This document shows, piece after piece, positions 14,885 to 59,300 of a DNA stretch of 64,000 nt. A model generated the notes under the pieces. It ran no database searches. It saw nothing but the letters and a program-made list of their open reading frames with translations, and had not been told where the DNA came from. The stretch lies in the IMG/VR virus record IMGVR_UViG_3300003321_000927. One strand, 5' to 3'. Each line of letters starts with the position of its first letter. Position 1 is the stretch's first letter. A program made the translations under genes and the position numbers. Source of the stretch: a virus.

Positions 14885-14890
14885 TCTCAC

Positions 14891-15344: not shown

Positions 15345-15357
15345 CTCGTCGACGTCT

Positions 15358-15445: not shown

Positions 15446-15452
15446 CTCACAA

Positions 15453-16003: not shown

Positions 16004-16009
16004 TCACCT

Positions 16010-31661: not shown

Positions 31662-34600
31662 CTAGACCCGAATGTTGAAGTGCGCGCCCGACGACACAGC
31701 GCCAAGGACAAAAGGCACGTAAGACGCGCGGCTGATCGGAGCTTCAAAGATGACCATCGTCGAGCTGCCGTCGGCATTGACGCCCGTATCAAGCAGCGCC
31801 AACACATACAGCTTGTTGTTCGAGTAGGCGAGCCGCGAAAACGTCCAGGCGTCGAGTTGCGGCAACGGGTTGCGGCCGTCGACCGGCATCCAGCCGATCC
31901 CTGAGCCGGGGTCCTGATCCACGAAGATGCCGGTGCCGTAGAAGGGCGTCGTGTTGTTGAACCAGTCGTAGATCAGCCAGATCCTGCCCAGTTCATCGCA
32001 TACGCAGTCAACGCCGGTCGGATCGGTCCAAGCGTGCGTTGCGTCATTGCCAAGCGTGTCACTGGCGGCTCCGTTATTGGTCTGCCTGTAGTCCTTGCGA
32101 TGCACGTAGTCGGGCTGCTTGTACTTGCCCAGATACGGCTCCCACGCCGTGCCATCTGCGGCGAGCTGCATCACGAGCACCCGGTCCGCCGCCGAGGCGA
32201 GGATCACCCTTGAACCGTTCCAGATCAGCCGCATCCCCTGCTGGGCGCTGCCCTTGGTCAGCGTGAAGTTGCTGCCGATTAGCGGCTGTTCGAGGAAGCC
32301 CATCAGGTCGCGATCGCCGCCGGTGTTCGCGAACACTTCGAGATGCGTCTTCACCTGGCTCGACCAGGACGTGCCGTTGTACTCCTGGTAGATGAACTCG
32401 TTCTGGATCCCGGACGGATTCGTCCCGTTGGTAGGGAAGTAGCTGGCGCAGTAGATCGCCGATGGGTTCGCGTTCGGGCCATCGTGGTGGTGGAATGTGA
32501 AGTCGACCTGGAGCTGCGTGTCGACGTGGATGTTGTTGACGTTGTAGTAGGCGCCGTAGATCTGCACGCGGTTCGCGTCTGGGCCGGGCAGGGCGGTGTC
32601 GACCCAGGTTGAGCCGTTCCATTTCCAGAGATAGGGCCGTACGTAGAACTCGTCGGCGCCGCCGTCGGGGGTGGCGGTGTAGCTGCCTCCGCTGAACGTC
32701 CACGCTGATGGCCAGTCGACGGCGTTGATCGCCGGTGTCTCACCGGCGGGATAGGTGGCGGAGGGGTCGCGGCGCAGCCCGAAGCCGAGGTAGCCGTCGC
32801 TGAACCACGAGCTGGTGTCGGTCGCGCTGTTCGGAAACGCCCTCGCGGGCGTCCCCTCCTGCGCGATCCACGCCTGGATCTGCGTCCCCGTCTGTGCGCC
32901 GATCGCCCCGACCGGCGTCGCCCGGATCGAAAGGATCGTCGGGTCGCGGTTGATGCTGGAGTTGTGGACGTTGCCGTTGTAGAGCAGCGTCTCCGTCCAG
33001 TTCGCCGCGCTGGTGCCGGTCTTCTTGACGATCGAGAGCGCGTTCGCGCCGCTCGGGCCCTGCGTCCAGCGGGCGTAGTAGCCGGGGTACTCGATCCGAC
33101 CGCCGCCGAGGTCGACAGGCGCCTGCAGCATCACCCCGACCTCCGCGTACAGGTTGGTGGCGGCGCCGTAGAGCACGTCGACGTGCATCGCGGCTTCCTG
33201 CGCGTTGCCCTTCGTGCCACCAGCGGTATAGCGGGCGACGTTCATGTACGTGGTGGCCGCCGATGGCACGACCCTGTTGCGTGTGGTCGTCGAGCTGTCT
33301 TGATAGAGGATCGTGGTGGAGCGGACCGTCAGCCCCGATTGGTCCCAGGAGGCGGAGAGGTTCGTCAGGTCGTCGATCAGCGGGGCGGTGAAGAACGGGG
33401 TTGCGCCAGCGTCGTCGGTTTCGCACCAGCCGACCCACGGGCTGCCTGACGGGTCGACGCGCAGCGTCACGGCGCAGTCGCCGCGCCCGGCGTCACAGTT
33501 GCTCTGCGTGCGCACCGCGGGCATCTTGTTCGCCTGCCCCGTCGAGGAACCGAGTTCTGTGAAGGTGCCACTGCCGGGCGAGTACTTCATGCAGCGCCAA
33601 GCGGTCTGGTACTCAGAATTTCTGTTTGCGCGGGACACAGGAGGCTGCGTTGTCGATACTTCGCCCCACGCGATAAAGACGTTCGTGCCATCGGTCCCGA
33701 TCGAGCAACTTGGCTTGCCGCGAGTATTGCCCGCGAAGGTCGAGCTGATCTCCGACCAGGCGGCGCCGTTCCAGCGCCAGAGCACCATCTTCCCGGTCGC
33801 GTTCCAGGCGGGCGAGGCAGAGACGAAACTGCCGGAGACGACGTAGACATCGCCGTTCGAGGTGACGCAGAGGTCTTTGCAGTTCGGGTAGGCGTCGTCG
33901 GCGATTCGGGCCGGTGTCAGCCCGGCATCGGTCCAGGCGGTAGCGCCGAGCGGCAAATTCGACACCGTCGCCAGGTCGATCGTCCCTTGCGGCCCGCCGT
34001 CAGCAAGCCAAACGAAGTCGACCGACCGCACTTCGAGCGTCGTGTCGGCGTCGTCGCGACCGTCGTTGACGACCGAGAAGCTCACCTCGTCGCCAGCCTT
34101 CAGCCCGTAGTACGGAGGCCCGCCAAGCCAGGCCGTGATGCCGGAGGCGGGCGGCCCGGTGAGCACGGCCGCAAAGCTGCCACTAACGCCGTACCCCGCG
34201 TTGCTGTCAACCTCCAGCACGAACGGCGCCATCCCGAAGAGGTGACCATTGACGTGCATGATGAGCGCGTAGCTCGCGGCGAAGCGCTCGGTGGTCGGGC
34301 TGACGTCCGTGGCGACGCCGTTCACCACCACCTTATAGGCACCTGGGCTGGGCAGGTTCGTGCCGCGCACGTAAAAGCTCGGACTGGGGTACAAGTTGAG
34401 ATCGTCGATGCCGTAGAAGTTCGGACTGGTGTCCGCCTGCCAGATCCGGGAGTCGATCACGCCGGTGCCGGTGATGGTGACCGTCGGCGAGCTGGTGTTC
34501 GGGTCGGCGGTCGCGAGCACCGTCTTGTTCTTGCTAACGGTGACGGTGAGGGTCGTCGTCTCCGACGCGCTGCCGTTGTTTCCGGTGACGGTGAGCGCGT

Positions 34601-35522
34601 AGGTTCCTGCGGCGACGGTGGATGTCGTCGTGATCGTCAGCGTCGAGGTGCCTGCGTTCTCGTTGATCGACGTCGGCACGAAGGCCGCTGTCATCCCTGC
34701 GGGCAGGCCGGAGACGCTGAGGAGGACGGTGCCGCTGGTATCCGTACCGAGGGCAGAGGTGACGGTCGTCGACTGCGATGACGCTGAGCCTGCCGCAAAG
34801 GTCATCGCGTTCGGCGAGCAGGAGACCGAGAACGGGCCGGGAGCTGGCCCCCAGGCGATGGCATCGACGTTGTTCTGGGCGACACCCCCGATCGTCAGCG
34901 ACGCCTGAACGCTCACCGCCCCCGAGGAGATGTCGACGGTAACGAGGTGGTTGTTGCCGGTCTGCGTCCCCCAGAAGACACCGGTGTCGGGGTTGAACTT
35001 TCCCGCTTGCAGCCTCGTGGTGTCGCTGCCGGTAGCAACGGTCGTGACGGCGCCCGTCGAGAGGTTAACGGTCTCCACGAACTGGTCGTTGCCGATCACG
35101 TGGTAGAGGGTTCCACCGCTGAAGTCGAGCCCACCGCTGTAGTCGCTCGCCACGGCCCCAATCGTCGTGACGACCCCGGTGCTCTTGTTGATCGCCCAGA
35201 GTCCACCGCCGGTGGAATCCCAGCCGTAGAGTTGACCGGAAGCGCTGAAGGCTATGTCCGCGGCGGCGCGAGTCAGGCTCAAATCGGCAACGAGCGTGCC
35301 TGCGCCGGTAGTGCGGTCGATCGTGATGATCGCCTTCGGATGCGAGGCGCTGTTGTTGCTGGTCGCGCCATAGAGGATCCCTGTTGTCGGATCGATTGCG
35401 AGCCCGGTTACGGCAAAGCCGATCGGTCCGATCGACGTCATGTTCCCCGTCGCGGGATCGACCGAGTAGAGGTTGGATGTCGTATTCGGGCCGCCGAGCG
35501 CGGCATAGAGCTGGGAGGCCAT
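31662..35522 (-). CDS. tail fiber / receptor-binding protein (1286 aa): N-terminal beta-propeller-like repeats, Ig-like domains, C-terminal beta-rich region
   Basis: Repeated G..LY.. blades. Ig-like segments TTLTVTVS. The size and position distal to the TMP fit a fiber. Confidence 0.6.
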   Translation of the reverse strand: MASQLYAALGGPNTTSNLYSVDPATGNMTSIGPIGFAVTGLAIDPTTGILYGATSNNSASHPKAIITIDRTTGAGTLVADLSLTRAAADIAFSASGQLYGWDSTGGGLWAINKSTGVVTTIGAVASDYSGGLDFSGGTLYHVIGNDQFVETVNLSTGAVTTVATGSDTTRLQAGKFNPDTGVFWGTQTGNNHLVTVDISSGAVSVQASLTIGGVAQNNVDAIAWGPAPGPFSVSCSPNAMTFAAGSASSQSTTVTSALGTDTSGTVLLSVSGLPAGMTAAFVPTSINENAGTSTLTITTTSTVAAGTYALTVTGNNGSASETTTLTVTVSKNKTVLATADPNTSSPTVTITGTGVIDSRIWQADTSPNFYGIDDLNLYPSPSFYVRGTNLPSPGAYKVVVNGVATDVSPTTERFAASYALIMHVNGHLFGMAPFVLEVDSNAGYGVSGSFAAVLTGPPASGITAWLGGPPYYGLKAGDEVSFSVVNDGRDDADTTLEVRSVDFVWLADGGPQGTIDLATVSNLPLGATAWTDAGLTPARIADDAYPNCKDLCVTSNGDVYVVSGSFVSASPAWNATGKMVLWRWNGAAWSEISSTFAGNTRGKPSCSIGTDGTNVFIAWGEVSTTQPPVSRANRNSEYQTAWRCMKYSPGSGTFTELGSSTGQANKMPAVRTQSNCDAGRGDCAVTLRVDPSGSPWVGWCETDDAGATPFFTAPLIDDLTNLSASWDQSGLTVRSTTILYQDSSTTTRNRVVPSAATTYMNVARYTAGGTKGNAQEAAMHVDVLYGAATNLYAEVGVMLQAPVDLGGGRIEYPGYYARWTQGPSGANALSIVKKTGTSAANWTETLLYNGNVHNSSINRDPTILSIRATPVGAIGAQTGTQIQAWIAQEGTPARAFPNSATDTSSWFSDGYLGFGLRRDPSATYPAGETPAINAVDWPSAWTFSGGSYTATPDGGADEFYVRPYLWKWNGSTWVDTALPGPDANRVQIYGAYYNVNNIHVDTQLQVDFTFHHHDGPNANPSAIYCASYFPTNGTNPSGIQNEFIYQEYNGTSWSSQVKTHLEVFANTGGDRDLMGFLEQPLIGSNFTLTKGSAQQGMRLIWNGSRVILASAADRVLVMQLAADGTAWEPYLGKYKQPDYVHRKDYRQTNNGAASDTLGNDATHAWTDPTGVDCVCDELGRIWLIYDWFNNTTPFYGTGIFVDQDPGSGIGWMPVDGRNPLPQLDAWTFSRLAYSNNKLYVLALLDTGVNADGSSTMVIFEAPISRASYVPFVLGAVSSGAHFNIRV

Positions 35523-36811: not shown

Positions 36812-39800
36812 CTAGCGAGTCGCCCCGGCGTAAGCGCCGCGGCGCGGCGCGACGTTACGGGAATCGTGCCGCTGCAGCTCGCGGCGGATGTCGCGACCGA
36901 TCCGCGTCCCATCCTTGGAGTCGCCCCCGCCAATCGTGATGTTGATCGGGCCGGTGAAGACCTGGCCGCCGTCGCTGAACGCGCGGGCGGGGATTGCGGC
37001 GACGCCACGGGCCCGGCGGGTGCCACCGAGTGTGTCGAGACCGTTCGCATGCGGCGTGACGAGTCCTGCATTGACCGGATGCGCCTGCGCCTGCGCCACG
37101 GCCCCCTGGAGCGCCAGCTTCTTGTCCCTCGGCAGCGAGTCGTAGTGAGGAATCGTCGAGCGGAGCTGGCTGACCGCCGAGACGGGGTCAAGCAGCTTCT
37201 GCAGACGCTTCTGCATTTCGACGACGTTGCCCGGACGATCGCGAGCGTCGAGGATCTTGCCCTTGGAAGCGGCAAGCCCCTGGAGGAGCGCCTGGTTCCG
37301 CGGATCGTTGGCGGCGTTCTCGATCGTCAGTGAGTTCTTGGCAACGACCGCGGTCAGCCGCTTCAGCCACTGCGACAGCTCACCGAGACCCGGAACGCGC
37401 AGGGTCGGTACCGGCGATGGCGTGGGGTTCTGCCCGACGCCGTTCTCGCTGACGACGCCGCCATCCGCGTAACGCTTGGCGATCATCGAGAACAAGCTCG
37501 TCGGCGACACGTTGCCGACACCGAGCATCGTCGAGAGGTTCGACTGCTGCTGCCGGTTGAGCACGATCTCACCCGGCGTGAGCATCGCTGGCACGGTGTC
37601 GCCCGAGCCCGAGCCTGGGACGAGCCCCCCGGTCCGGAAGCCCTTGACACCGTAGTGGATGCGGCTCTCGATCTTCTTCATGAGGTCCTGCAGCGCCTCG
37701 TCCCCGTACTGGTTGGCGTAGCCCTTGAAGTAGGCGTCTGCCGCCGACGTGATGAAGCGACGGAAGTCGCCTCCCCAACGTCCGGTCTTATTGAGGGCCT
37801 TCTGCGGCACCCAGGAGGCGGCCTGGACCTCCTTGGGCGCCCATCCGAGCTGCCGCGCGACCTCCTGGTACATGGCCACGAAGCTGTTGTAGGCGTGGCC
37901 TGGTGAGTCGTGCCCCGGCCAAACGAGGGCTGTCGAGTGACGATCGATGGTCGTCGACTGCTGCTGCGCGAGCCGCGCGTAGGCCCGCGGGTCGGCGTTC
38001 TCCAGGATGCCGAGGAAGTAGTTCGTGAGCTTCGGGATGCGTCCCTTGGCACGCCCAGGACCGACACCGAAGAGATCGGCGATCTTCTCCATCTGAGCCT
38101 CATGGAACTTGAACTTGCCCTGAGCGCCGTTGGCCGTCCGACCGACCTTCGGCTTGTAGTACTTGGCGAAGGTCTCAGCGGTGAGCTTGCCCTCGCCCTT
38201 GATCGCGCGAATGGCGGCGACGGCGAGGTTGAAGTTGGAGGTCGGATCCTCGCTTGGCGAGGTATATGCCAGCGCCTTGACGAACTTGCTGGTGCTCACA
38301 CCCTCGCGCTTGGCTGACTGCTTCGCGACGAACGCTGCAGCGTCATACCAGCGGCGGTATTGCGCGTACTCGACGGCCATCGTGTAGATGCGCCTCATCG
38401 CACCAGCGGGGCCGCCTGGGAGATCCTTCGGCACGATCCAGTCCGCCTTGCCCTTGTTCGCGGAGACGAGCTTCTGGAAGTTCTCGACAGCCGCCGTCTC
38501 GTCGAAGGCCGGAACGTAGTTCCTTCCGATCAGGGTGCCTGCGACCCGCGCTGCCGCTTCGACGTCAGTGTCAAGAAGGGGCTTATGCGGGAGCGCGCGG
38601 CGGATGTTCCTCTTGCCGAGCGCGGTCTGGAACGAGGCGGGCTTATGGCCGGGGATGCCGTAATCGGGGAGATGGCGGTCGAAGACGTAGCTCCCTTGCC
38701 AGGAGATGTCATGCCCGCTGATGCCGAGCTTGCCAATCGTCTTCTTGAATTGCTCCGCCTCAACACCGCCAAAGTTGACGACGTAGTAGCCACGCCGCAC
38801 AGGGCTATGCATGATCCCGACGTTGCCCTCGCCGTAGGCCTGGTCGAGCCTTGCCTGGACCTCGGCGATGTCCCGGCCGCCAGACTGCCAGAAGACGCCT
38901 GGGTGGATGTCGGGCCCGACAGCACCAGGCGCGAGCGGGCGCCCGAACGACAGCGAGGCCTGCTTGAAGCCCTTGCCGACGTAGGCTGTGAGCGCCTTGA
39001 CCTTGTTCTCGAACGCCTGGTCGTAGCCCTCCTTCGGAATGGCGACGTGAATGCCGTAGCCGATGTTCTTCTGGCCGCGCCAGGTACCGAGACCAGGCCG
39101 GATGTCCGTCACGTTGAGTCCGAGCGAGCGCGCGGCCTCGTGGATCCGCTTGTTCGCGGCCCCCATGAGCGCCCGCGCCTCGATCGCCTGCCCACGGAAC
39201 GTCTTCGAGCGGAAGCGCGCGTAATCCTCGGGGTACAGTTCCTCCTTCGGCTCGAACTCACCGAAGATCTGCACCTCCTTCTGGTTGAGCGCGGCAACGA
39301 CCTTCTGCGGGAGGTTCGCGTAGTTCCGGTTGCGAAAGATGACATCCTCGCCCGAGTGAGCAATCCCGTACTTGCTGGTCTTCAACTGCTTGCCGACGAG
39401 GCCCTTCGGGATGGCGACGATCCAGCGTCCGTAGTACGAGCCAGGCTTCGTTGTCGCAAAGGCACCAGGAGGAGCGCCGAAGCCACCGCTCCGTTCCGCC
39501 GAGGTCGCGAGCAACTTCCCGCTCTCGATGATCGCCTTGGCCGACTTTTCATTCATCGTGGAGTGATAGAAGAAGCCTGCATTCGGGAGCAGGTCGCGAT
39601 CCTTGTAGGGCACGTAGAAGGCCTGGCCGCTCGCGAGGAGCTGATGGATGCGACGCGACTCACGGCCGAGGAAGAGCGCACCCGTTTCGTCCGTGGCAAG
39701 GCGCTTCAGTGCCTGCTTGAACCGGGAGCCGCGGCTCTTCAGGTCGAGTTCGAAGCGGCCACTCCTACCCCCGCCGACACGCTGGAACCCGAGGTGCTCG

Positions 39801-42800
39801 TAGAAGGTCTCGCCGGAAAGCGTCGAGAGCAGCTCCAGCTTTGACGCGCCAGACTTCAGGGCATCACCCATCACCCGCTGAACGAGCTGACGGCCGACTC
39901 CCTGCGAGTTGGCCGTCGTCGCGAGCGAGATCAGCTCTGCGCCCGACGCCTTGCCCTTCACCTTCCCGAAGACGTCGGTGATGCCGACGCGGTTGGCATC
40001 ACGCAGCGCGAGGTTGGCAACGCCAACCAGACCACCGGACTGGTCGCGGGCGACGTAGGTGCGCCCGCTCACCAGGTTGAGCAAGGTCTCTTCGGCGAGT
40101 TGCCTTCCGCCTGGCTTCCACTGCGCTGCGCGGACTTCGTTGAGGACTTCGACGCGCTTCTTAGGATCGAGGAGGCTGATTCCGTGCGCGAGTGTGATCT
40201 GGCCACGATCCGACCGGAGTGCGTTGATCACCCGCGAGCGACGGTCGGCAGGTGACAGTGTGTGGTCGGTCGCCAGCGACCCGAGGCCGGTGTTCTTGCC
40301 CCTGCGTGCATTCCTAAGCGTGTCCGCGACACTGCCCTCGCCACCGGGGTAGAAGGCCTCCTGCCACATCTCCTTGTAGGTGGCGGGGATCGAACGGAGG
40401 AAGCCGCGACGGTCATCACGCCATGTCTTCGCTCCTGCCGCCAGGCGCTCCCACTGCGCACGGCTGGCAACGCCGCTCGCAGCAACAGTCTCCCGCAACG
40501 CGCCCCCGGTCACCGGGATAAACTGCGCGCCGAAGAGAGCGAGTGCGCCGAAGAGACTCTTCGCGTTGCTTCCCGAGGGATCATCCGCGAACGCCCTACC
40601 CGTCTTGGCAACCGGCACGACACCGAAGCCGGAGGCGATCAGAGACCGGGCGATTTCGATGGGGTTGGACGCCGCCGCGAGCAGGCGCACGAGCGGCGAG
40701 TGCTCGTAGGCCTTGCGCAGAACGCGAAGATCCTCGGTGGTGTTCGGGGCATGATCCCCGCTCGTCGCTCCATGCGTCGCACGAACGAAAGCGCCGAGGC
40801 CTGACCTCGGATCGTATGTCGTCTTGACTGCGTTCGCGTGGTCGATCGAGTTGAGGATCCGTCCCTCCGACCAGGTCGGGTGCCATTGCTTGATCTGGCC
40901 GCGGATTTCGGCGTCGCTGTAGCCCTCGCGCCGCATGCGGCGGATCGCCTGGTCGATCGACTCCATCGGGGTCGCCGTCGTACGCTTGTGATGCCGGTCA
41001 GCGACGCCGCCGGTAGCGAAGCGCGAGATGCGATGAAAGAGGGTATGCGGGTCGTCGCTCGTGATGCCGAGGCGCGATGCGAGGCCGGACTGCTGGCGCT
41101 TGTTGAGGACGATCTCGCCCGGCGTCAGGAGCGCTGGGACGGAGTCGGTGCTCCCGCGACCAGGAACGACGGCGCCGGTGTTGGCACCGAAGAATCCCTG
41201 GTCGCGCAGGTTACGGCGGAGAAGGATCTGAAGCGGCTTTGGATACCTGTTGAGCCAGGCCTCGTACTCGTCCTTCGAGGGCCGACCGTGCTGAGGCGGT
41301 TCTCCGCCAACGTGGGCGGCGCGCATCGCAGCGATGATCGCCGGACGCGTCGGGATGCCGCTCGCGATCTTCGCATTCGTGATCGGGTTCGGAGCGGCAG
41401 CCGCTGTCACAGCCGCGGCGGCTCCGCCCTTGCGCGTCGAATCGGTCCGCTCCTCGGCGTTGATCGCGGCGATGCCCTGGGAGAGGTTGCGAAGGCGGGT
41501 CGTCAGGTCGTGCGTGCGCTTGTCGATCTTGTCGAGGTTGCGCTGGATGTCCTTGGTCAGGTTGTCGAAGTACTTCGACATCTGATCGGCGTATGCCTTG
41601 CCGCCGTCCTTGCCCGCCTGCTCGATCGAGACGTTGAAGCGGCGCATGATGCCCTGGACGTCCTTCTTGTACGTCGCGAGCGAGATCTTCCCCTTCTGGA
41701 ACAGCGTCTGCTCGCCTGCAAGGGCGGCCTTCAGGTTGTCCTCTGCGACCTGACGCGTGGCCTCGATGCTGCGCCGCAGGTCCGAGCGCTGGTCCTCGAT
41801 CGCCTGCCGTTCGAGCTTGCGCCGCTTGTCGAGGTCCTTCTTCGCGTTGTCGAGCGCCTTGTCGGCGGCCGTCCGCTCGGTCTTCGCACGCGCCTCCAGG
41901 CCGAACTTCCGCTGCGCGAGCTGTGCGTCCTCGATGTTCCGCTGCGCCTCGCGGATCGCTACCGGGTCGCCGACAAGCTCGGCCGTCCCCAGTGCCTGCC
42001 GCGAGTCGAAGAGATCGCGCTGGAAGTTGCGCTTCTCCTGGATCCGGTCGAGCGCGTCCAGCTCGCGCTCGGCAGGCGTCTTCCCGTTGACCTTGACGGT
42101 GAAGGTCGCGTTCGGCAACTTGACCTTCGCCGTGAGGTTGTCCTCCAGCTTCTGCGTCTTGTCGTCGAAGGCCGAGAGGATGCCGTCCGTCTTCCGGTCG
42201 AAGCTGTCGAGCATCCGGTCGGTGCGCGCCTCGAAGGCGTGCGTGACCGAGTCGCCGATGTGGTTGAAGAGCGTGTCGAACTGGTGCTGCGCAGCCTTGA
42301 CCTGCTGGTTGACCGGGTCGAGGATATTCGCCAGCTCGTCGTGACCGTGCTGGCGCAGGAAGTTTGCCGCGGCGACCGCGTTGGCGGTGAGCTGCTGTTC
42401 CTGCGCCTGCTGTAGGAGCGTCTCGGCAACGGCCTCCCGGCCCGCCTTGCGCGCAGCTTCTGCCTGCTTGACAAGGATGCCAATCTTCGGCAGCGTCCGG
42501 TCGAGCCCGTTCTCCAACTGCTTGAACAGCTCGTCGTTGACGTTGTTTTCGAGGTTCTTCTTCGCCGAGGCGCCGATCTTGCCGAGCCGCGCCTGGGCGT
42601 CGTGCGCATCGCGCTCGGACAGCCAGTGCCCGATCAGCGGCACGTGCTTGTCGATATGGTCGGCGAAAAACTGATCGAGCTTACCGAGCGCGGTGCGGCC
42701 CTTGCTCGTGCCATCGATAAGCTGCTCGATCGCAAGCGAGAGCCCGATGATCCCGCCCTTGCCGACAAGCGCGTTGAGGCCGATGGCACGAAGCGCGCCG

Positions 42801-45481
42801 GAGAAGAGCCGCGAGTTGACTACGCCCTTCGTCAACATGAATGTCCCGACTGCGTTGATCGTGTTCTCCAGCCCCAACCCCGATGCCTGAGCCGCGAGCA
42901 GGCCGCCCGCGACGAGCTTCAGCTTGGTGCCCAGCGACGCCGACTGGAAGGAGAGATCCTTCATCTTCACACCCAACGCGGCCAGTCCGGTCGCCGCGAC
43001 CGCACCGTCTTCGCCGAAGGCCTTCAGGCCCCTAATCTTTCCGAGGGCCGCAGCGCCACCGAGACCGATCGCCGCGAAGGTCGCGATGCCGACCTTCTGG
43101 ATGTCGAGCAGGTCGTGCGTGACGGCATCGCGCGTCTTGTGCGAGTCGAAGATGACCTTGCCAACCAGATCGGTGGCGAAGGTGAGCGCGATGAAGTCAA
43201 GGCCGAGCTTCGCGGTCTGCCGCATCCCCTGGATCGCGGTGCCGAAGTTCGTCGTCATGATCCGCAGCGGCTGCTGCGTCGCGGCGGCTGCCTCTGCCGC
43301 CTCCTGCCTCAACCGCGTCTGGAGCAGCTTCGTGCGCTGATCGAAGGCAGCGAAGCCAGTGACGGGAACTGCTGCAAGCGAAACCTGCCGCGTACGAATC
43401 CTGCTTTGGAGATCGGCGACGCGCGCGGCTGCAATCGAGATCCCCACTCCCTGCTTCTGGGCGATCTGCAGCTCCTTCTCGGCGAGCGTCAGCTCGCGCG
43501 TCATCTGCAGCAGCTTCGCGTCGGACGGGAAGAGCAGCGTCTCATTGCTCTTCGCAAGTTGAAGCTCGGTCGTGGCCCGGTCCAGCTCCGCGCGGGCGAT
43601 CGCAATCTGATTCGGGATGGCGGTCTGAAGTGCGGCGTTGTACTTCGTCTGCGCGGCGGTGACCGTCTGAGTCGCTGCCGCGACATCGAGCGCCCGCCGC
43701 TTCTCGATCACCGCAAGGGCGGCGCCGCCGATTGCGGCCTCTTCGCCGACCGTGAGACCGGCACCACCAGCCGTCTGGCCACGACTGAGATTGCGGCCAG
43801 CCGAGACCTTCGAGAGCGCAACGGCGCCCCCCGTGGCGGCGAGGATACCGCCACGGACACCGGCGTTAGAGGCGGCGTTGACGCGACCGATCGAGGCGGC
43901 TGCCCGATCAGCAGCTCCGGCGACCCTGTTGTAACCGCTGACGAACTCCACGGTCGCCTTGCGCTCGGCGATCAACGCCTGGTTCTGCTCGACGTTGATG
44001 CCGCGCACAGCGTAGGCCGCCTTGGTCGCGGCGACCTGCCAACGACCCCAGACGGTGACGCCGAGGGAGGCCGCCTGGACGAGACGGCCGAAGAGCGAGG
44101 TGATCGGGCCGAAGAGCAGAAGTCCGAGCCCGAAGTCCTTCAGCAGCCCATGCAGAGGGCCGAGCTTCTGAAGGAAGTCGTCGACACCCTTACCCGCGCT
44201 TACCGCGCCGTTGACGAAGCTCAGGAAGTCAGCGCCGATGTGGATGAAGCTGTGGCCGACCTCGATACCGGTTGCGCGCAGCTTCGAAAGCTGGAGCTGG
44301 AGCTGACCGATGGGGGTCTTCAGCTTCGCTTCGTAGGCACGCTTGATGACTTCCTGCGAATGCTCGGCGTCGAACGAGAGCTGCGAGAAGACCGACGCCG
44401 TCTGCGCCCGGCGCGGGCCTGTCAGGACGAGAAACTCGGTGAGGGCGCGGATGTTCGGGAACAGCTTCGCCATCGCCTCGTTTGTGGTCCCGACCTGCGC
44501 CTTGATCTTCGCGAGAGCGAGGGCGTCGCCGCCGAGTCCGGCCGCCAGCGTCTTCGTGTTGATCTTGACCGGCGCATCCCCGAGCTTGTTCAGCTCGGTG
44601 CGCAGGGCAATCAGCGTCGGCAGAAGGCCGATCTGCGGATCGCGGATCGACTTGATGACCGCGGTCGGCGAAGTGCCGACCGAGGCGAGCGCCTTCTGGG
44701 TGATCGGCTGGGCCTTCTGGATCTGCGAGAGGAGGGCGCGGACGCCGGTGACGGCGAGGTTGGCGTTCAGGCCCTGGCGCGTCGTCGCGGCGATTGCAGC
44801 GCCGAGCTGGTCGTAGGAGAGGCCGAGCGCGTTGGCGATCGGGATGGCGCGACCCATCGCCCCGGCCAGCTCATCCGTCGGCAGCTTGCCTGCGTTGATC
44901 GTTCCGATCAGGATGGCGACGGACTGGTTCGCGCTGAGCGAGGTGCGGCTCGCGGTCTGCCCGGCAATGCCGTACGCGTCGAGTGATGAGGCGACGGCGT
45001 CCGCGACATCACGAATCGATCCGAGACCGGCTGCCGAGGCCTTTGCGATCGGCCCCATCGCGGCGATCGTCTGATTGGTGCGGAAGCCGACCGACTGCAG
45101 CTCGAAGACGGCGTCGGCGAGGTCGGAGAAGTTGTTGACGATCGTCGAGCTGCCGAGGTTCAACATCGCGCGCGAAAGGCGCTGGGTGTCAGCAGCCGTC
45201 GTGTTCGTGATACCGCCGATCTTCGCGACCGAGGTCTCGAAGTCCGCCGCCAGCTTCGCGCTTGCAACCCCGAGCAAACCGAGCGGGACCGTCAGATTGC
45301 GCGTGAAGAAGTTTCCGACCTGGACGGTGCGGCGGCCGACGGCGCGCAGGCTTTCGTCGACCTTGCGACCAACGACCGTCGACGCCTGCAGCTCGGCGTT
45401 GAATGCAGCGACCTGCTGAGTCGCCAGCCTCAACTGCGCGTCATTAACGGTGATCGCGTAGGCGAGATCCTGGCGAGCCAC
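36812..45481 (-). CDS. tail tape measure protein (2889 aa) with embedded GNAT acetyltransferase domain and duplicated internal module
   Basis: GTG at 45481 with GGAGG 8 nt upstream. The N-terminal 1400 aa are a helical Ala/Gly-rich TMP core. It lies downstream of the chaperone and major tail genes. An internal Q.VGRQL GNAT motif A is present. Confidence 0.8.
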   Translation of the reverse strand: MARQDLAYAITVNDAQLRLATQQVAAFNAELQASTVVGRKVDESLRAVGRRTVQVGNFFTRNLTVPLGLLGVASAKLAADFETSVAKIGGITNTTAADTQRLSRAMLNLGSSTIVNNFSDLADAVFELQSVGFRTNQTIAAMGPIAKASAAGLGSIRDVADAVASSLDAYGIAGQTASRTSLSANQSVAILIGTINAGKLPTDELAGAMGRAIPIANALGLSYDQLGAAIAATTRQGLNANLAVTGVRALLSQIQKAQPITQKALASVGTSPTAVIKSIRDPQIGLLPTLIALRTELNKLGDAPVKINTKTLAAGLGGDALALAKIKAQVGTTNEAMAKLFPNIRALTEFLVLTGPRRAQTASVFSQLSFDAEHSQEVIKRAYEAKLKTPIGQLQLQLSKLRATGIEVGHSFIHIGADFLSFVNGAVSAGKGVDDFLQKLGPLHGLLKDFGLGLLLFGPITSLFGRLVQAASLGVTVWGRWQVAATKAAYAVRGINVEQNQALIAERKATVEFVSGYNRVAGAADRAAASIGRVNAASNAGVRGGILAATGGAVALSKVSAGRNLSRGQTAGGAGLTVGEEAAIGGAALAVIEKRRALDVAAATQTVTAAQTKYNAALQTAIPNQIAIARAELDRATTELQLAKSNETLLFPSDAKLLQMTRELTLAEKELQIAQKQGVGISIAAARVADLQSRIRTRQVSLAAVPVTGFAAFDQRTKLLQTRLRQEAAEAAAATQQPLRIMTTNFGTAIQGMRQTAKLGLDFIALTFATDLVGKVIFDSHKTRDAVTHDLLDIQKVGIATFAAIGLGGAAALGKIRGLKAFGEDGAVAATGLAALGVKMKDLSFQSASLGTKLKLVAGGLLAAQASGLGLENTINAVGTFMLTKGVVNSRLFSGALRAIGLNALVGKGGIIGLSLAIEQLIDGTSKGRTALGKLDQFFADHIDKHVPLIGHWLSERDAHDAQARLGKIGASAKKNLENNVNDELFKQLENGLDRTLPKIGILVKQAEAARKAGREAVAETLLQQAQEQQLTANAVAAANFLRQHGHDELANILDPVNQQVKAAQHQFDTLFNHIGDSVTHAFEARTDRMLDSFDRKTDGILSAFDDKTQKLEDNLTAKVKLPNATFTVKVNGKTPAERELDALDRIQEKRNFQRDLFDSRQALGTAELVGDPVAIREAQRNIEDAQLAQRKFGLEARAKTERTAADKALDNAKKDLDKRRKLERQAIEDQRSDLRRSIEATRQVAEDNLKAALAGEQTLFQKGKISLATYKKDVQGIMRRFNVSIEQAGKDGGKAYADQMSKYFDNLTKDIQRNLDKIDKRTHDLTTRLRNLSQGIAAINAEERTDSTRKGGAAAAVTAAAAPNPITNAKIASGIPTRPAIIAAMRAAHVGGEPPQHGRPSKDEYEAWLNRYPKPLQILLRRNLRDQGFFGANTGAVVPGRGSTDSVPALLTPGEIVLNKRQQSGLASRLGITSDDPHTLFHRISRFATGGVADRHHKRTTATPMESIDQAIRRMRREGYSDAEIRGQIKQWHPTWSEGRILNSIDHANAVKTTYDPRSGLGAFVRATHGATSGDHAPNTTEDLRVLRKAYEHSPLVRLLAAASNPIEIARSLIASGFGVVPVAKTGRAFADDPSGSNAKSLFGALALFGAQFIPVTGGALRETVAASGVASRAQWERLAAGAKTWRDDRRGFLRSIPATYKEMWQEAFYPGGEGSVADTLRNARRGKNTGLGSLATDHTLSPADRRSRVINALRSDRGQITLAHGISLLDPKKRVEVLNEVRAAQWKPGGRQLAEETLLNLVSGRTYVARDQSGGLVGVANLALRDANRVGITDVFGKVKGKASGAELISLATTANSQGVGRQLVQRVMGDALKSGASKLELLSTLSGETFYEHLGFQRVGGGRSGRFELDLKSRGSRFKQALKRLATDETGALFLGRESRRIHQLLASGQAFYVPYKDRDLLPNAGFFYHSTMNEKSAKAIIESGKLLATSAERSGGFGAPPGAFATTKPGSYYGRWIVAIPKGLVGKQLKTSKYGIAHSGEDVIFRNRNYANLPQKVVAALNQKEVQIFGEFEPKEELYPEDYARFRSKTFRGQAIEARALMGAANKRIHEAARSLGLNVTDIRPGLGTWRGQKNIGYGIHVAIPKEGYDQAFENKVKALTAYVGKGFKQASLSFGRPLAPGAVGPDIHPGVFWQSGGRDIAEVQARLDQAYGEGNVGIMHSPVRRGYYVVNFGGVEAEQFKKTIGKLGISGHDISWQGSYVFDRHLPDYGIPGHKPASFQTALGKRNIRRALPHKPLLDTDVEAAARVAGTLIGRNYVPAFDETAAVENFQKLVSANKGKADWIVPKDLPGGPAGAMRRIYTMAVEYAQYRRWYDAAAFVAKQSAKREGVSTSKFVKALAYTSPSEDPTSNFNLAVAAIRAIKGEGKLTAETFAKYYKPKVGRTANGAQGKFKFHEAQMEKIADLFGVGPGRAKGRIPKLTNYFLGILENADPRAYARLAQQQSTTIDRHSTALVWPGHDSPGHAYNSFVAMYQEVARQLGWAPKEVQAASWVPQKALNKTGRWGGDFRRFITSAADAYFKGYANQYGDEALQDLMKKIESRIHYGVKGFRTGGLVPGSGSGDTVPAMLTPGEIVLNRQQQSNLSTMLGVGNVSPTSLFSMIAKRYADGGVVSENGVGQNPTPSPVPTLRVPGLGELSQWLKRLTAVVAKNSLTIENAANDPRNQALLQGLAASKGKILDARDRPGNVVEMQKRLQKLLDPVSAVSQLRSTIPHYDSLPRDKKLALQGAVAQAQAHPVNAGLVTPHANGLDTLGGTRRARGVAAIPARAFSDGGQVFTGPINITIGGGDSKDGTRIGRDIRRELQRHDSRNVAPRRGAYAGATR

Positions 45482-45565: not shown

Positions 45566-45862
45566 CTAGTTCTGGGGACGATTGACGATTTCGGATGCGA
45601 CCCGGACCTCCTCGGCGATGTGCGCCGGGAGGTCCCAGAGATCACAGGGCGGGTGGCCCGTGATCTTCAGATCAGCCAGCCATTGAATCGCCATTAGCGG
45701 CTGCGCGACGAGCGTGCCGCCATGCAGAAGATGCGCTTGTTCCTCTAGGAGGAGGAGTCGTCTTCGCTCGGCTCGGGTGAGACCGGCGTATCGTTCGTCT
45801 TCTGGGAACTCGAAGCCGCCCGTCTCTGCTTCCGGTTCGGCTTCGTCTCCTCCTCCAAAGGG
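45566..45862 (-). other. -1 frame extension of the tail assembly chaperone (candidate G/GT programmed frameshift; slippery heptamer C-CCT-TTG at 45856-45862)
   Basis: In the chaperone frame the heptamer reads CTC CCT TTG (X XXY YYZ). The -1 frame stays open about 97 codons beyond the chaperone stop, down to the TAG at 45566-45568. Confidence 0.4.
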
Positions 45863-46308
45863 AGGATCGGCTGCCCCGTCTCGGGGTCCTGAGCGAGGGG
45901 CTCGATCCCCCAGGAGATCCAGCCGTAGATCTGGTCTTCCAGTGCCGAGTCGAGCTGGTCGAGGATCGACTCGCTCCAGGGCACGTCGTAGTCCCAGGAG
46001 ACGACGGCGCGCTTGATCAGCAAGCGACGGCCCGATCCGGGAGCAACCCCACCGGTCGATTCGTTCGTGAGGTCCTGGATCGCATGCTTGTCGGCTGCGC
46101 GCAGCGGACGGAAGGTGATCCAGATCTTGCGAGCGCCCTCCTTGGGCATGATGAACATGCGCTCGATCTCGGTGTCCTTGTCGGCCTCGACGGCGGCAGC
46201 AAATTGCTCCGTGTCGAGGGTCTCGCCCTTCACGACGAAGCGCGCTTCGCCGTCCTCGGGATCGAACACGAAGCGCTTGTAGGTCTCGTTGCCAACGAGG
46301 ACTGCCAT
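45745..46308 (-). CDS. tail assembly chaperone (G-like)
   Basis: ATG at 46308 with GGAGG 5 nt upstream. Acidic protein immediately upstream of the TMP, followed by a frameshift-compatible ORF. Confidence 0.55.
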   Translation of the reverse strand: MAVLVGNETYKRFVFDPEDGEARFVVKGETLDTEQFAAAVEADKDTEIERMFIMPKEGARKIWITFRPLRAADKHAIQDLTNESTGGVAPGSGRRLLIKRAVVSWDYDVPWSESILDQLDSALEDQIYGWISWGIEPLAQDPETGQPILPLEEETKPNRKQRRAASSSQKTNDTPVSPEPSEDDSSS

Positions 46309-46559
46309 CGAACCTCCAGAGTCAGATGCCGCGGAAGATTGGTGCTGCCAAGACAGCACCACGATGACAGGAGGATCGGACGGCAGCTATCGCTAGTTCG
46401 GGGGAGAACGAAGAAACCGCCTCCCGGCGGCTTCTTCGTTCCGGCGATTCGGTGGACCGTCGCCGCCGGTATAGAGGCGCGCGCCCCGGCTGCGGCTCCA
46501 GGGCGCGCGCTACGCGGGTTGCAGAACGTTGCCGCCCCGTCCCGCGATCTTCAGCTCGA

Positions 46560-47552
46560 CTAGCTGGTCGGGCCCGCCGTGTAGGACGCGACCGAGTTCG
46601 TCACGGCGACCGTGAAGAACTTGCCCGAGACCGTATCGAGGTGGACACGTGCCGTGACGTCGACCGCCTTCAGCACGTCCGCGCCGGAGATCGGAGCCGG
46701 AGCCGAGACCTCCTGGCAGGCCGGGACGGTGATGACGATCTTGTCCGTGCCGGTGCCCGTCGCCGTCAGACGGAAGCCGATGTCCGTCGGATCGACGTCG
46801 AGCGCGTACCGGTAGAACGTCTCCATCGTCGACCGGGCCGAGAACCGCACCTCGGCGTCCGCGTTACCGTACGGCAGCGCGTACAGCTTCCGCGAGCCGA
46901 GCACGGCCTCGTCGGTGTCGAGGTTGTTCTGGTACGTGACGCCCGCCGAGGCCGCGACGATCGCCGTCTGGTCGCTGAACGTGCCGTCCAGTGTCCATTC
47001 GACCGCGACCTGGGAGAACTTGAAGCGATTCGACGAGTCATACGAGGCGACCGGGGCCGTCTGCGTGTCGTCGAGATCGAGCGCGATCCAGTTCGCGTCC
47101 ATCTTGACGTAGTCGTTCGCCGCGATGTTCACCTGCAGCTCGTTGCCGCGCGCGTCCCAGAAGAGGTCGACGATGGCCGCCTGGCCTGCCGCCTTCGGGT
47201 CGTTGCGGATCGCGAAGATCGAGTGCGGCTCCGGCACCTTGCCAGCGGCCGTCGGGTCGAACGTGTGGACGTACGGCCCCGCGCCCGACGTGGCCGGGTT
47301 GCCGAGGAAGCCCGAGAGCACGCGCGGGAACGACGACGCGCGCGGCGCACCCGACATCGGCACCTCGAAGAAGCGGGTGCCGTAGTCGAGCCCGGTCGCG
47401 AAGCGGTTGCCGATCGTCTCCTGGATCGTAAGCTGCGTGGCATTGTCGTTCACGTCGGACGACTCGACCGGCACCCAGTACTCCATGCTGGTCACCTTCG
47501 TCCCCATGCCCGCTGGCTGAACTGCGAGTCCTACTGCATCGACGCGAGACAT
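46560..47552 (-). CDS. major tail (tube) protein
   Basis: 330-aa beta-rich protein in the canonical position upstream of the chaperone and TMP. Confidence 0.55.
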   Translation of the reverse strand: MSRVDAVGLAVQPAGMGTKVTSMEYWVPVESSDVNDNATQLTIQETIGNRFATGLDYGTRFFEVPMSGAPRASSFPRVLSGFLGNPATSGAGPYVHTFDPTAAGKVPEPHSIFAIRNDPKAAGQAAIVDLFWDARGNELQVNIAANDYVKMDANWIALDLDDTQTAPVASYDSSNRFKFSQVAVEWTLDGTFSDQTAIVAASAGVTYQNNLDTDEAVLGSRKLYALPYGNADAEVRFSARSTMETFYRYALDVDPTDIGFRLTATGTGTDKIVITVPACQEVSAPAPISGADVLKAVDVTARVHLDTVSGKFFTVAVTNSVASYTAGPTS

Positions 47553-58800: not shown

Positions 58801-59300
58801 TACTTGGCCGCCTGAATGCAGTGCAGCGCGCGAGGACGATTCGCCAGCTCGCCACCTGGGCTGTGCGAGCACTTCATGACGACGGGGTCATCGAGGTGCT
58901 GCTTGATGTGCCGGATCTCCGTCTCGCGCCAGACATTGAAGATCAGAAGCACGATCAAGAGCAGCTCGACGAAGCGCGTGAAGCTCCAGGAGATCTTCTC
59001 CACGATCATGTCCTCGTCCGTGACGACGGACTCGCCCCCGCGGGCGATGCCGCTCTCATTCATGAGTCCGCCGCTCAGGTAAGGGCGCCAGCCGAGCGAG
59101 AGAATCAGCACGCCGAGATGGAGGTCGAAATAGGGCCCGTAGCTCAGGCCTTGGAAGCGTCCCCCGGAGACCGAGCGACGCTTGAAGTCGAGGTGTATGC
59201 CGAGAGAGAGCCAGCCGTTGAGCTGCCACTGAAGCATCCACAGCTCGCCGTAGCGAATGTTCCAGCCAGTCAAGCGATGAATCCAGGATGGCAGCCGCAT
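58800..59300 (-). CDS. hypothetical membrane-like protein (about 167 aa)
   Basis: Internal ATG at 59300. Hydrophobic segments are present. Confidence 0.35.
   Translation of the reverse strand: MRLPSWIHRLTGWNIRYGELWMLQWQLNGWLSLGIHLDFKRRSVSGGRFQGLSYGPYFDLHLGVLILSLGWRPYLSGGLMNESGIARGGESVVTDEDMIVEKISWSFTRFVELLLIVLLIFNVWRETEIRHIKQHLDDPVVMKCSHSPGGELANRPRALHCIQAAK

Follow-up and report, generated by a model that had tools for sequence, protein, structure and literature searches.

A tape measure protein carrying an internal cassette of predicted enzyme-like modules between two copies of a junction motif

The tape measure gene and its neighbours

We analyzed a 64,000-nt stretch of viral DNA (IMG/VR record IMGVR_UViG_3300003321_000927), hereafter the window. 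A long open reading frame (ORF) lies there in a tail gene block with the following members:

46560..47552, minus strand: tail tube gene, just upstream of the tape measure gene (PF18906 Phage_tube_2, E 3.9e-13; phrog_290, E 3e-24)
45745..46362, minus strand: 205-aa ORF between the tube and tape measure genes, a candidate tail assembly chaperone by position
36812..45481, minus strand: complete ORF of the tape measure protein (TMP), 2889 aa (309 kDa), with a GTG start and a TAG stop

The 2889-aa ORF is a genuine siphovirus-type TMP read in one uninterrupted frame. More specifically, residues 105-306 match PF10145 (Pfam; E 1e-18, 68.4 bits, cut-off 33.2), TIGR01760 also passes its cut-off of 28.8 with 62.8 bits, and 10 tape-measure families in PHROG match the protein, all within residues 4-594. 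The adjoining tail tube gene further supports this identity. GC3 stays between 0.76 and 0.94 across all 150-codon blocks of the ORF and, given this uniformity, there is no break in the coding signal and no sign of a frameshift. An earlier note, made from the letters of the window and a list of its ORFs, had read the locus as a single 2889-aa TMP, and the uninterrupted frame, the two above-cut-off matches and the tail tube neighbour bear this out. The same note put the protein at roughly twice the usual length; it is long indeed, but is better described as 1.6 times the length of its own short relatives (1723-1835 aa). Across all relatives, lengths range from 1723 to 2889 aa.

A protein identical to the TMP is on record from a 71,428-nt JGI contig. 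When the whole protein was used as query, tblastn matches were confined to the N-terminal TMP core and a search of PDB sequences gave no match; megablast of GenBank phages gave no match to the TMP either. Going by family membership and published work (PMC12617516), the TMP would lie in the tail lumen, set tail length and be ejected before the DNA.

The order tube, 205-aa ORF, TMP is shared with the 83-kb contig of a long relative (P0006), which is arranged likewise as tube-chaperone-TMP. Family searches with the 205-aa ORF returned no match, and a search near 45745-46362 for the partner of a programmed-frameshift chaperone gave one plausible ORF and no overlapping out-of-frame partner. The tail tube protein had no tblastn match in GenBank phages. 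Elsewhere in the window, two 982-aa ORFs (1581-4529, plus strand; 49886-52834, minus strand) were suspected of being a repeat and proved unrelated on comparison.

A cassette between two copies of a junction motif

The four short relatives (P0003, P0004, P0005 and P0007) align only to TMP residues 1 to ~1497 and ~2561-2886. By BLAST, the backbone match to P0004, P0005 and P0007 covers residues 1 to ~1440/1497, and residues 2561-2886 correspond to residues 1398-1723 of P0004, a pattern repeated in P0003, P0005 and P0007. Since the short relatives match only the two flanks, residues ~1497-2610 constitute an internal insert. The protein is laid out as follows, from N- to C-terminus and all on the minus strand:

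41192..45481, minus strand: TMP backbone, residues 1-1430, common to the short relatives (BLAST), with the PhageMin_Tail/TIGR01760 core at residues 65-306
40994..41191, minus strand: junction motif copy 1, residues 1431-1496, GANTGAVVPGRGSTDSVPALLTPGEIVLN...LFHRISRFATGGVA; short relatives have exactly one copy, here
40517..40975, minus strand: module A, residues 1503-1655, a small helical unit (~50-aa core) followed by a Gly/Ala-rich hydrophobic linker
39740..40180, minus strand: GNAT acetyltransferase-like module, residues 1768-1914, with acetyl-CoA loop NSQGVG and C-terminal motif FYEHLGF
39257..39634, minus strand: module C1, residues 1950-2075, an alpha/beta domain in which H1973, R1997, S2043 and D2046 are invariant
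38672..39256, minus strand: module C2, residues 2076-2270, a predicted ferredoxin-like alpha/beta domain whose best structural matches are a phage SAM lyase and a SAM-AMP lyase
37694..38425, minus strand: module D (DUF7178), residues 2353-2596, all-helical and predicted to be HhH-GPD glycosylase-like, with invariant K2484 and D2513
37442..37648, minus strand: junction motif copy 2, residues 2612-2680, GFRTGGLVPGSGSGDTVPAMLTPGEIVLN...LFSMIAKRYADGGVV
36812..37441, minus strand: TMP C-terminal region, residues 2681-2889 and stop, homologous to the C-termini of the short relatives (BLAST, alignment)

The insert is bracketed by two copies of a glycine-rich motif of ~65 aa, VPAxLTPGEIVLN...LF...GGVV (or, more loosely, VPAxLTPGExVLN), and in the DNA the cores of the two copies are identical at 39 of 46 positions. 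One copy is present in the short relatives, two in the window protein (P0001), P0002, P0006 and P0018, and three in P0017; in the multi-copy relatives, the motifs always flank extra domains. Thus the C-proximal junction motif is duplicated, with a multi-domain cassette of ~1,100 residues between the copies. The cassette (~122 kDa) comprises at least four globular modules and reads, in order, small helical unit, GNAT, His/Asp alpha/beta domain C1, SAM-lyase-like C2 and HhH-GPD-like DUF7178. It does not consist of ordinary TMP repeats, an outcome for which the region was also checked.

The closest relative, P0002 (2683 aa, 56% identical to the window TMP), was assembled independently in three SRA runs, and P0006 (2749 aa) is a second long form with two motifs. 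Identity between P0001 and P0002 amounts to 81% in C2 and 79% in DUF7178, against 59% in the backbone and 35% in the C-terminus, so that these two cargo modules are more strongly conserved than the TMP that carries them. The content of the cassette varies among relatives. P0018, a related giant protein, has an R-S-E ADP-ribosyltransferase (PF03496, above cut-off) immediately after its first junction motif; P0017 has DUF7178 and module C in a different order. Insert modules are also found in phage giant proteins other than TMPs that have NlpC/P60 ends, and in P0019 and P0020 DUF7178 and C2 are joined to NlpC/P60 wall peptidases. A survey for TMP cargo with a junction-motif profile returned gene fragments of at most 118 aa only, and no relative came up when GTDB species genomes and IMG/VR were scanned with patterns.

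The modules of the cassette

Module A, which has no Pfam family, matches P0024, P0030 (three tandem copies) and several small proteins (HMMER); P0030 itself shows just weak RepB_primase_C/antitoxin-like matches.

The earlier note had placed a GNAT fold at 39766-40054 (residues 1810-1906), and both Pfam and profile searches agree. Pfam Acetyltransf_7 matches residues 1806-1900 with E 7.7e-6 and 26.6 bits, close under its cut-off of 27.0; on the same stretch, Acetyltransf_10 (21.6 bits, cut-off 23.6) and Acetyltransf_1 (18.8 bits, cut-off 20.7) also stay below cut-off, and NCBIfam ArsN2 matches weakly. A profile was built from the window segment and its three nearest relatives (four sequences) and run against PDB sequences: 83 matched, with a best E of 1.8e-5, and all of the best 60 of these 83 are GNAT acetyltransferases or GNAT-family proteins. 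An exhaustive HMMER search of 1.84e9 representatives recovered P0054, P0071 and P0073 as the only relatives of the segment. Of these, P0073 is a bona fide GNAT by Pfam (E 8e-12), and its RGQGVG and FYEKLGF align with NSQGVG and FYEHLGF of the TMP. As judged from these sequence comparisons, the GNAT homology is real. The motif A loop, N-S-Q-G-V-G, keeps G-x-G, with FYxxxGF downstream; the Q-x-x-G-x-G/A acetyl-CoA motif proposed previously therefore holds for its G-x-G part, while its first position is N and not Q/R. GNAT is the least conserved module of the cassette, and P0002 lacks it.

For C1, conserved H, YY and E residues had been proposed at 39332-39619 (residues ~1955-2050). Among five homologues, H1973 is indeed invariant, together with R1997, S2043 and D2046; YY 2016-2017 and E2045 vary. 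The F/W position of a GA[FW] motif is conserved. HST takes the place of the relatives' HGT in the window protein, which also has K at a position occupied by E in two relatives. In hhalign, the His motif falls on H862 of PARP1 over 25 columns only (E 0.04), and neither a family HMM nor a structural match revealed an ADP-ribosyltransferase fold. At the sequence level, there are thus weak hints of a PARP-like, ADP-ribosyltransferase H-Y-E/D arrangement.

C2 is predicted to be SAM-lyase-like at the level of fold only. With two different aligners, its best structural matches are SAM and SAM-AMP lyases, a correspondence that holds at fold level; the top Foldseek match is a tandem ACT-type ferredoxin-like protein, and C2 may be a generic double ferredoxin-like domain. 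The modelled fold resembles that of the phage SAM lyases (T3 SAMase, Svi3-3; PMC7877911) and SAM-AMP lyases (PMC12255297). These are free-standing, trimeric, early-expressed proteins of ~130-150 aa, whereas C2 has ~195 aa, is embedded in a larger protein and lacks sequence similarity to T3 SAMase, to which hhalign yielded no meaningful alignment. By eye, C2 contains G-x-W...H...Q-x-S. The substrate-binding residues of Svi3-3 are G56, Y58, E69 and Q104 (PMC7877911); the two sets may correspond, in which case Glu would be replaced by His. T3 SAM lyase is described as countering type I restriction-modification and BREX, and SAM-AMP lyases as degrading the type III CRISPR signal. Such early anti-restriction, anti-BREX or anti-CRISPR-signal functions (PMC7877911, PMC12255297) would fit delivery together with the DNA. 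As a side observation, the C-terminal parts of TMPs are trimeric in several phages (PMC12617516), which is compatible with a lyase trimer for C2 but does not count as evidence of one.

DUF7178 was modelled as a two-lobed helical HhH-GPD fold, and we predict an HhH-GPD-type glycosylase, the first fold-based prediction for this domain. In 27 sequences, neither K2484 nor D2513 varies. The only local alignment that hhalign gave to E. coli EndoIII (sequence confirmed against 2abk_A) places them on K120 and D138, with a single pairwise E of 0.09, and their spacing resembles that of Lys120/Asp138 in the helix-hairpin-helix of EndoIII. HhH-GPD families of Pfam gave no match on DUF7178 at E<=1, and a DUF7178 profile run against PDB sequences matched AGOG only (E 1.3-2.3). 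The predicted helical fold is that of EndoIII, AGOG, AlkA, MutY and OGG1, and of queuine-salvage Qng1/DUF2419. HhH-GPD base-excision enzymes act in repair, whereas DUF7178 sits inside giant phage virion proteins: it occurs in roughly 45 representative clusters, mostly giant proteins of 1,300-2,800 aa. Host DNA, modified bases or a nucleotide signal are possible substrates.

Proposed delivery and role of the cassette

Wall-degrading domains in TMPs and multi-enzyme polyvalent proteins injected from the head are each already known, and the window TMP appears to join both. Muralytic TMPs (TM4 with its Rpf-like motif, PMC1796659; TP901-1, PMC5099701; T5 pb2; enterococcal transglycosylases, PMC10194240) likewise combine a C-proximal enzyme module with a helical, length-setting backbone, and their module goes out with the TMP when infection begins, as we propose here. 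Theirs is a single peptidoglycan hydrolase working in the wall; the present TMP has at least four modules, with predicted substrates in the cytoplasm, and Pfam detected no muralytic family in the TMP. In the polyvalent proteins of phages and conjugative elements, GNAT and ADP-ribosyltransferase domains occur alongside nucleic-acid enzymes, and these proteins are predicted to enter the cell together with the DNA (Iyer, Burroughs, Anand, de Souza, Aravind 2017, PMC5512222). They too are giant polypeptides encoded by late or virion genes that string together unrelated biochemistries, with GNATs among the listed domains; their domain order varies, several domains were independently acquired more than once, and early counter-defence is their predicted function (PMC5512222). 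By the definition of at least two disparate activities in one polypeptide, the predicted GNAT, glycosylase-like and SAM-lyase-like domains would place the TMP among them, and it is itself encoded in the tail gene block, with the virion and late genes.

There are also differences. The phage examples of polyvalent proteins have head, portal or MuF-type modules or N4-like vRNAP as their anchor, whereas the carrier here is a TMP; the paper that defines them (PMC5512222) does not mention tape measure proteins, glycosylases or lyases. None of the hallmark seed domains (MuF, portal, Alt-type ART, DarB, ArdC, N4 vRNAP, relaxase, MPTase) was found in the TMP, although the relative P0018 has an Alt/VIP2-type ART (PF03496) in a TMP-like context. 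The cassette is internal and has a repeated junction motif at its bounds, and no releasing peptidase domain was found in the TMP, in contrast to many polyvalent proteins. T4 Alt and MuF-VIP2 fusions (PMC7302621, PMC9206674) are similarly virion-borne enzymes associated with a structural protein and injected before phage gene expression, where they modify targets in the host, a step that is proposed for the TMP; they are single effectors packaged in the capsid, and the TMP would hold several domains in the tail lumen. Sle1 and Sle2, modular effectors from contractile injection systems in actinobacteria (Nagakubo et al. 2026, PMC13277306), share a TMP-derived scaffold that is loaded into a tail-like tube and serves as a reconfigurable platform for swappable domains; Sle1 belongs to a cellular phage-tail-like particle and has one C-terminal functional domain, as opposed to an internal multi-domain cassette in a phage TMP.

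We favour, with modest confidence, a cassette that is the tail-lumen counterpart of head-packaged polyvalent proteins, ejected ahead of the DNA and directed against the host. The TMP would fill the tail lumen and enter the cell envelope before the DNA follows; lambda gpH*, likewise ejected before the DNA, forms a trans-envelope channel (PMC12617516). Because TMPs fill the lumen and leave before the DNA, the cassette would arrive at the very start of infection. There it could act on cytoplasmic targets, namely proteins or small amines (with acetyl-CoA), SAM or a SAM-derived nucleotide, and the N-glycosidic bond of DNA or nucleotides, and so blunt host defences or take over the host. Delivery to the cytoplasm, catalysis, substrates and an anti-defence role are all inferred. 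The earlier note had also considered cell-wall modification by the GNAT cargo; this is less likely, since acetyl-CoA, SAM and DNA, the substrates that the folds imply, are all cytoplasmic.

Other readings of the cassette were weighed against this one. The inserted domains might be catalytically dead structural passengers that serve as length spacers, as plug or channel mass or as surfaces on which tip proteins dock. Tail length normally follows from the length of the TMP, which varies among the relatives between 1723 and 2889 aa; the GNAT scores below the Pfam cut-offs and has N for Q/R in motif A; and C1 shows HST for HGT, and K for E of two relatives. We nevertheless think this unlikely, given that the candidate catalytic Lys/Asp pair of DUF7178 is invariant in 27 sequences, that the GNAT retains both its G-x-G loop and FYxxxGF, that conservation in C2 and DUF7178 is far above that of the backbone, and that a role in tail length leaves the presence of the modules in non-TMP NlpC/P60 giant proteins unexplained. 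Action in the envelope or periplasm, for example with the GNAT O- or N-acetylating the wall and the helical domain being of lytic transglycosylase type, would agree with muralytic domains being the only enzymatic ones documented in TMPs (PMC1796659, PMC5099701, PMC12617516), with the proposed release of the C-proximal part of T5 pb2 to the periplasm (PMC12617516) and with the pairing of DUF7178 and C2 with wall peptidases in P0019 and P0020; we give it a low probability.

A still smaller chance is left to modules that work in the producer cell or during assembly, modifying components of phage or host late in infection or excluding competing phages, with carriage in the virion incidental or the modules trimmed away. 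Lambda gpH and T5 pb2 are processed near a glycine-rich C-proximal region at maturation (PMC12617516), and the glycine-rich junction motifs could be processing sites. On the other hand, a 309-kDa late structural protein at 3-6 copies per virion is a poor supply of enzyme, and the cassette sits between the backbone and the C-terminal part, both of which are needed for TMP function. Finally, it is hardly credible that an error of assembly or sequencing produced the long ORF by fusing a TMP gene to a separate polyvalent-protein gene. The contig is metagenomic and the GNAT segment is unique to it, yet GC3 is continuous, the insert is internal with TMP-homologous sequence on either side, and the arrangement with two motifs turns up again in P0002 (three independent assemblies), P0006, P0017 and P0018. 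We regard a fusion artefact as excluded because P0002 was assembled independently in three runs, and a check for a hidden frameshift or gene fusion, which considered the internal position of the insert and the recurrence of the long architecture in independent assemblies, found neither.

The favoured tail-lumen counterpart of polyvalent proteins can be extended, more tentatively and with somewhat less than even confidence, to a modular injection platform. The junction motif would mark the boundaries of interchangeable cytoplasmic effectors (GNAT, SAM-lyase-like and DUF7178 here, the ADP-ribosyltransferase in a relative) that disarm SAM-dependent restriction or BREX, nucleotide signalling or DNA-based defences; it may also be a processing site. 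If this is true, the C-proximal half of the TMP would get as far as the cytoplasm, which to our knowledge is established for no siphophage. The TMP would then offer a new delivery route, with anti-defence enzymes inside the cell before any phage DNA is exposed, and cargo that functions only in the cytoplasm would be a built-in reporter of whether an ejected TMP crosses the inner membrane. The junction motif would also be of use in engineering, as a natural splice point for loading phage tails with foreign proteins.

We also estimated whether the tail has room for such cargo. With a tail of ~266 nm set by a 1775-aa core, three full TMP copies would fill ~34-41% of the lumen. The folded modules measure 3.2-4.1 nm across, about the width of a tail lumen, and would have to travel unfolded or staggered.

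An insert between two copies of a junction motif

The tape measure protein (TMP) of the window, P0001, is encoded by the window's longest ORF (36812-45481, minus strand, 2889 codons, GTG start, TAG stop), exactly as an earlier note had read it. The 2889-aa protein belongs to the TP901-type TMP family, with matches to Pfam PhageMin_Tail (PF10145) at residues 105-306 (E 1e-18, 68.4 bits vs a cut-off of 33.2), to NCBIfam TIGR01760, the TP901-type tape measure core (62.8 bits vs a cut-off of 28.8), and to ten PHROG tape-measure families, all inside residues 4-594. Upstream of its gene are found:

46560-47552: tail tube gene (PF18906, E 3.9e-13; phrog_290, E 3e-24)
Between the tube and TMP genes: 205-aa ORF in the tail chaperone position
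Farther upstream than the tube gene: head-tail adaptor-like genes

The phage lineage is very divergent. Megablast against 50,697 GenBank phages gave no match; in tblastn against GenBank phages, TMP matches were confined to the N-terminal TMP core and the tail tube protein had none. In GTDB genomes and IMG/VR, pattern scans found no relatives.

Protein search identified eight clear relatives, comprising short (P0003, P0004, P0005 and P0007; 1723-1835 aa) and longer ones (P0002, P0006, P0008 and P0009; 2138-2749 aa). The short relatives cover query residues 1-~1497 and then ~2561-2886 (BLAST and MAFFT). Because they match the two flanks only, residues ~1497-2610 (1,114 aa, 122 kDa) define an insert in an otherwise ordinary TMP of ~1,775 aa. 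Two copies of a ~65-aa junction motif (VPAxLTPGExVLN...LF...GGVV) bracket this insert, and the motif-core DNA is 39/46 identical between them:

Residues 1431-1496: junction motif copy 1, GANTGAVVPGRGSTDSVPALLTPGEIVLNKRQQSGLASRLG...LFHRISRFATGGVA
Residues 2612-2680: junction motif copy 2, GFRTGGLVPGSGSGDTVPAMLTPGEIVLNRQQQSNLSTMLG...LFSMIAKRYADGGVV

Counted by regular expression, the motif is present once in each short relative, twice in P0001, P0002, P0006 and P0018, and three times in P0017 (P0017 and P0018 being proteins that share insert modules), with extra domains between the copies in every case. The motif has a sub-repeat of its own, [RK][FY]AxGG(V)V, at both ends (window 37442-37648 and 40994-41191, minus strand), and in P0005 and P0007 a ~140-aa extra segment lies inside it, between VVPG and GDxVPAML. 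These two features suggest that the junction motif itself may be an insertion hot spot.

Third-position GC is 0.76-0.94 in each 150-codon block of the TMP ORF (window GC 65%). The coding signal thus stays in one frame throughout and gives no hint of the hidden frameshifts that the earlier note had wished to see checked. A database entry from a 71,428-nt JGI metagenome contig has the identical 2889-aa sequence. Furthermore, three SRA runs each gave the long architecture of P0002 in an independent assembly, and that of P0006 is carried on an 83-kb contig with the gene order tube-chaperone-TMP, as in the window. This recurrence, together with the TMP homology that flanks the insert on either side, excludes a fusion of two genes, the alternative raised in the earlier note. 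An assembly artefact as the source of the long ORF is accordingly highly improbable.

Modules of the insert

The insert was searched exhaustively with HMMER against 1.84 billion cluster representatives. Only 60 proteins matched, and their matches divide the insert into modules:

Residues 1503-1655: module A, a ~50-aa helical unit
Residues 1768-1914: GNAT module (Pfam, NCBIfam and profile vs PDB)
Residues 1950-2075: module C1, in which conserved H, YY and E residues had been noted earlier
Residues 2076-2270: module C2 (AF2 model and Foldseek)
Residues 2353-2596: module D, DUF7178 (Pfam 27.0 bits, equal to the cut-off)

We are highly confident of this anatomy of the TMP and its insert. The unit of module A is present in several small proteins and as three tandem copies in P0030, another protein sharing insert modules; no family assignment was found for it.

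Three Pfam GNAT models match the same stretch, each slightly below its gathering score (26.6 vs 27.0, 21.6 vs 23.6 and 18.8 vs 20.7), and the NCBIfam ArsN2 GNAT model matches it weakly. The only relatives of the GNAT module among the 1.84 billion representatives are P0054 (1096 aa) and P0071 (1538 aa), both of unknown kind, and P0073, a 173-aa bona fide GNAT (Pfam Acetyltransf_1, E 8e-12). A four-sequence profile built from the module and these three relatives matched 83 PDB sequences (best E 1.8e-5); the 60 matches listed are without exception acetyltransferases of the GNAT type or other GNAT-family proteins. The module has NSQGVG as its acetyl-CoA loop and retains a FYEHLGF motif downstream. 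Given these motifs and the uniformly GNAT matches listed, we conclude from sequence that the homology is real and that the segment belongs to the GNAT superfamily, bearing out the GNAT domain of the earlier note. This module is absent from P0002, the closest relative; the GNAT is thus an addition specific to this lineage, made to a cassette that already existed. P0054 and P0071 carry the GNAT at ~300-440 and have in common a long conserved C-terminal half; outside the GNAT, no Pfam or PHROG assignment was found. No other large proteins carry this GNAT subtype, and the two form an uncharacterised protein family that could be virion-borne too.

Among five C1 homologues, H1973, R1997, S2043 and D2046 are invariant; of the residues singled out earlier, the H is thus retained while YY and E2045 are variable. 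The pattern FFYHGTS..A..I..S.KL.AT ... GA[FW].T ... S..D[VI].F recalls H-Y-E/D ADP-ribosyltransferases (ARTs). Pfam PARP matched 1/5 C1 members (E 0.31), and hhalign aligned the C1 His motif with PARP1 (sequence verified) over 25 columns (E 0.04). The C1 profile had no match in PDB, and ARTs are absent from the structural match lists, which the neighbouring domain C2 dominates. We assign C1 to no family; an ART of the H-Y-E/D type is a thinly supported lead.

For C2, residues 1915-2300 were modelled with AF2 on nine aligned sequences, and the mean pLDDT was 81 (85-95 in the C2 part). Foldseek independently matched C2 to 6zm9 (probability 1.00) and 6znb (0.98); its list has a tandem ACT-type protein first and T3 SAMase lower. 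No sequence-level link between C2 and T3 SAMase (sequence verified) was found by hhalign; among SAM lyases, too, similarity can hardly be detected (PMC7877911). C2 therefore resembles SAM lyases as a fold-level lead, not as a member.

The AF2 model of DUF7178 (27 sequences) is all-helical, with pLDDT 85 and pTM 0.83. Residues invariant in the family include K2484 (G.KTN.FY) and D2513 (VTVDRH), and in the only hhalign local alignment these are paired with Lys120 of the helix-hairpin-helix and the catalytic Asp138 of E. coli EndoIII (sequence verified as 2abk_A). From the model and this alignment, we conclude that DUF7178 is a putative glycosylase-like domain of a divergent HhH-GPD type that has the bifunctional Lys/Asp pair. 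It falls outside the HhH-GPD sequence families; as a predicted function, it probably works like, and descends from, HhH-GPD glycosylases.

Proposed delivery of the cassette and alternative roles

TMPs sit in the tail lumen; lambda gpH* leaves before the DNA and builds a trans-envelope conduit, and both lambda gpH and T5 pb2 undergo cleavage within a C-proximal stretch rich in glycine (PMC12617516). Speculatively, the junction motifs, which are glycine-rich, may serve for processing or docking. Phages also inject head-packaged polyvalent proteins combining GNAT, ART and nucleic-acid-acting domains (PMC5512222, PMC7824862). Reported fusions are MuF-based, and PMC5512222 mentions neither tape measure proteins nor glycosylases or lyases.

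We propose that the TMP would act as the tail-lumen carrier of a polyvalent cassette and be the first to reach the cell. The substrates implied by the three assignable modules would be acetyl-CoA, SAM or one of its conjugates, and either DNA or a nucleotide. These are cytoplasmic, so that action would be expected in the cytoplasm and not at the wall. T3 SAMase is reported to counter type I R-M and BREX, and SAM-AMP lyases to counter CorA-type CRISPR signalling; a SAM-degrading activity, if present, would be consistent with such known counter-defence. With a tail of ~266 nm, the length that the 1,775-aa core sets, three full-length copies would fill ~34-41% of the lumen and six 67-83%. Since the folded modules are 3.2-4.1 nm across, they would be unfolded or staggered in the lumen. 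We hold this delivery and counter-defence mechanism with moderate confidence.

The insert might instead be a structural spacer without catalysis. Identity between P0001 and P0002 is 81% in C2 and 79% in DUF7178, vs 59% in the TMP backbone and 35% in the C-terminal region, and other giant phage proteins carry these modules in shuffled arrangements. In P0017 (2816 aa, TMP_2 match under the Pfam cut-off) DUF7178 precedes module C; in P0018 (2701 aa) the first junction motif leads straight into an Alt/VIP2-type ADP-ribosyltransferase (PF03496, above cut-off) and then module C; in P0019 and P0020, DUF7178 and C2 occur together with an NlpC/P60 peptidase at the C-terminus; and P0015 (DUF7178 and NlpC/P60) is encoded about 0.8 kb upstream of an Amidase_2 endolysin-type gene. 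Such conservation and shuffling are signs of functional cargo, and we consider a spacer unlikely. Cargo acting in the envelope or periplasm would agree with the TMP enzymatic domains documented so far, which are peptidoglycan hydrolases (PMC12617516, PMC1796659, PMC5099701); with the cytoplasmic substrates implied here, this is slightly less likely again. That the modules serve the producer cell or assembly is a little more doubtful still. The preferred reading, a cassette delivered by the tail, likens the window TMP in behaviour to polyvalent proteins, although it lacks the hallmark anchor and peptidase domains of that class. An actinobacterial contractile injection system with modular effectors derived from a TMP has been described (PMC13277306); no phage TMP with cytoplasm-acting enzymes was found in the searchable literature.

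Other features of the window

12432-16095, plus strand: array of 20 tRNA genes
19815-21383, minus strand: RtcB-type tRNA-splicing ligase (phrog_1075, E 2.7e-69)
28607-29563, minus strand: candidate endolysin (phrog_9589 endolysin, E 1e-8) whose CHAP-like domain is weakly matched (Pfam E 0.004)
30393-31658, minus strand: 421-aa ORF downstream of the TMP (phrog_5313)
31662-35522, minus strand: 1286-aa ORF with DUF6923 repeats, downstream of the TMP
53788-58872, minus strand: second giant ORF (1694 aa), upstream of the head-tail genes

The tRNA array and RtcB make up a phage-borne tRNA supply with a repair enzyme, plausibly countering anticodon-nuclease defences, and fit a counter-defence-rich genome. 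The 1694-aa ORF has no PHROG match, its sole match being a C-terminal Laminin_G_3/concanavalin-like domain (PF13385, E 1.3e-11). Two ORFs of exactly 982 aa (1581-4529, plus strand; 49886-52834, minus strand) were considered as a large inverted repeat or assembly problem, which was rejected as they proved unrelated on comparison. The 1286-aa and 421-aa ORFs are probably distal tail or receptor-binding proteins, and the candidate endolysin could hint at the host cell-wall type.
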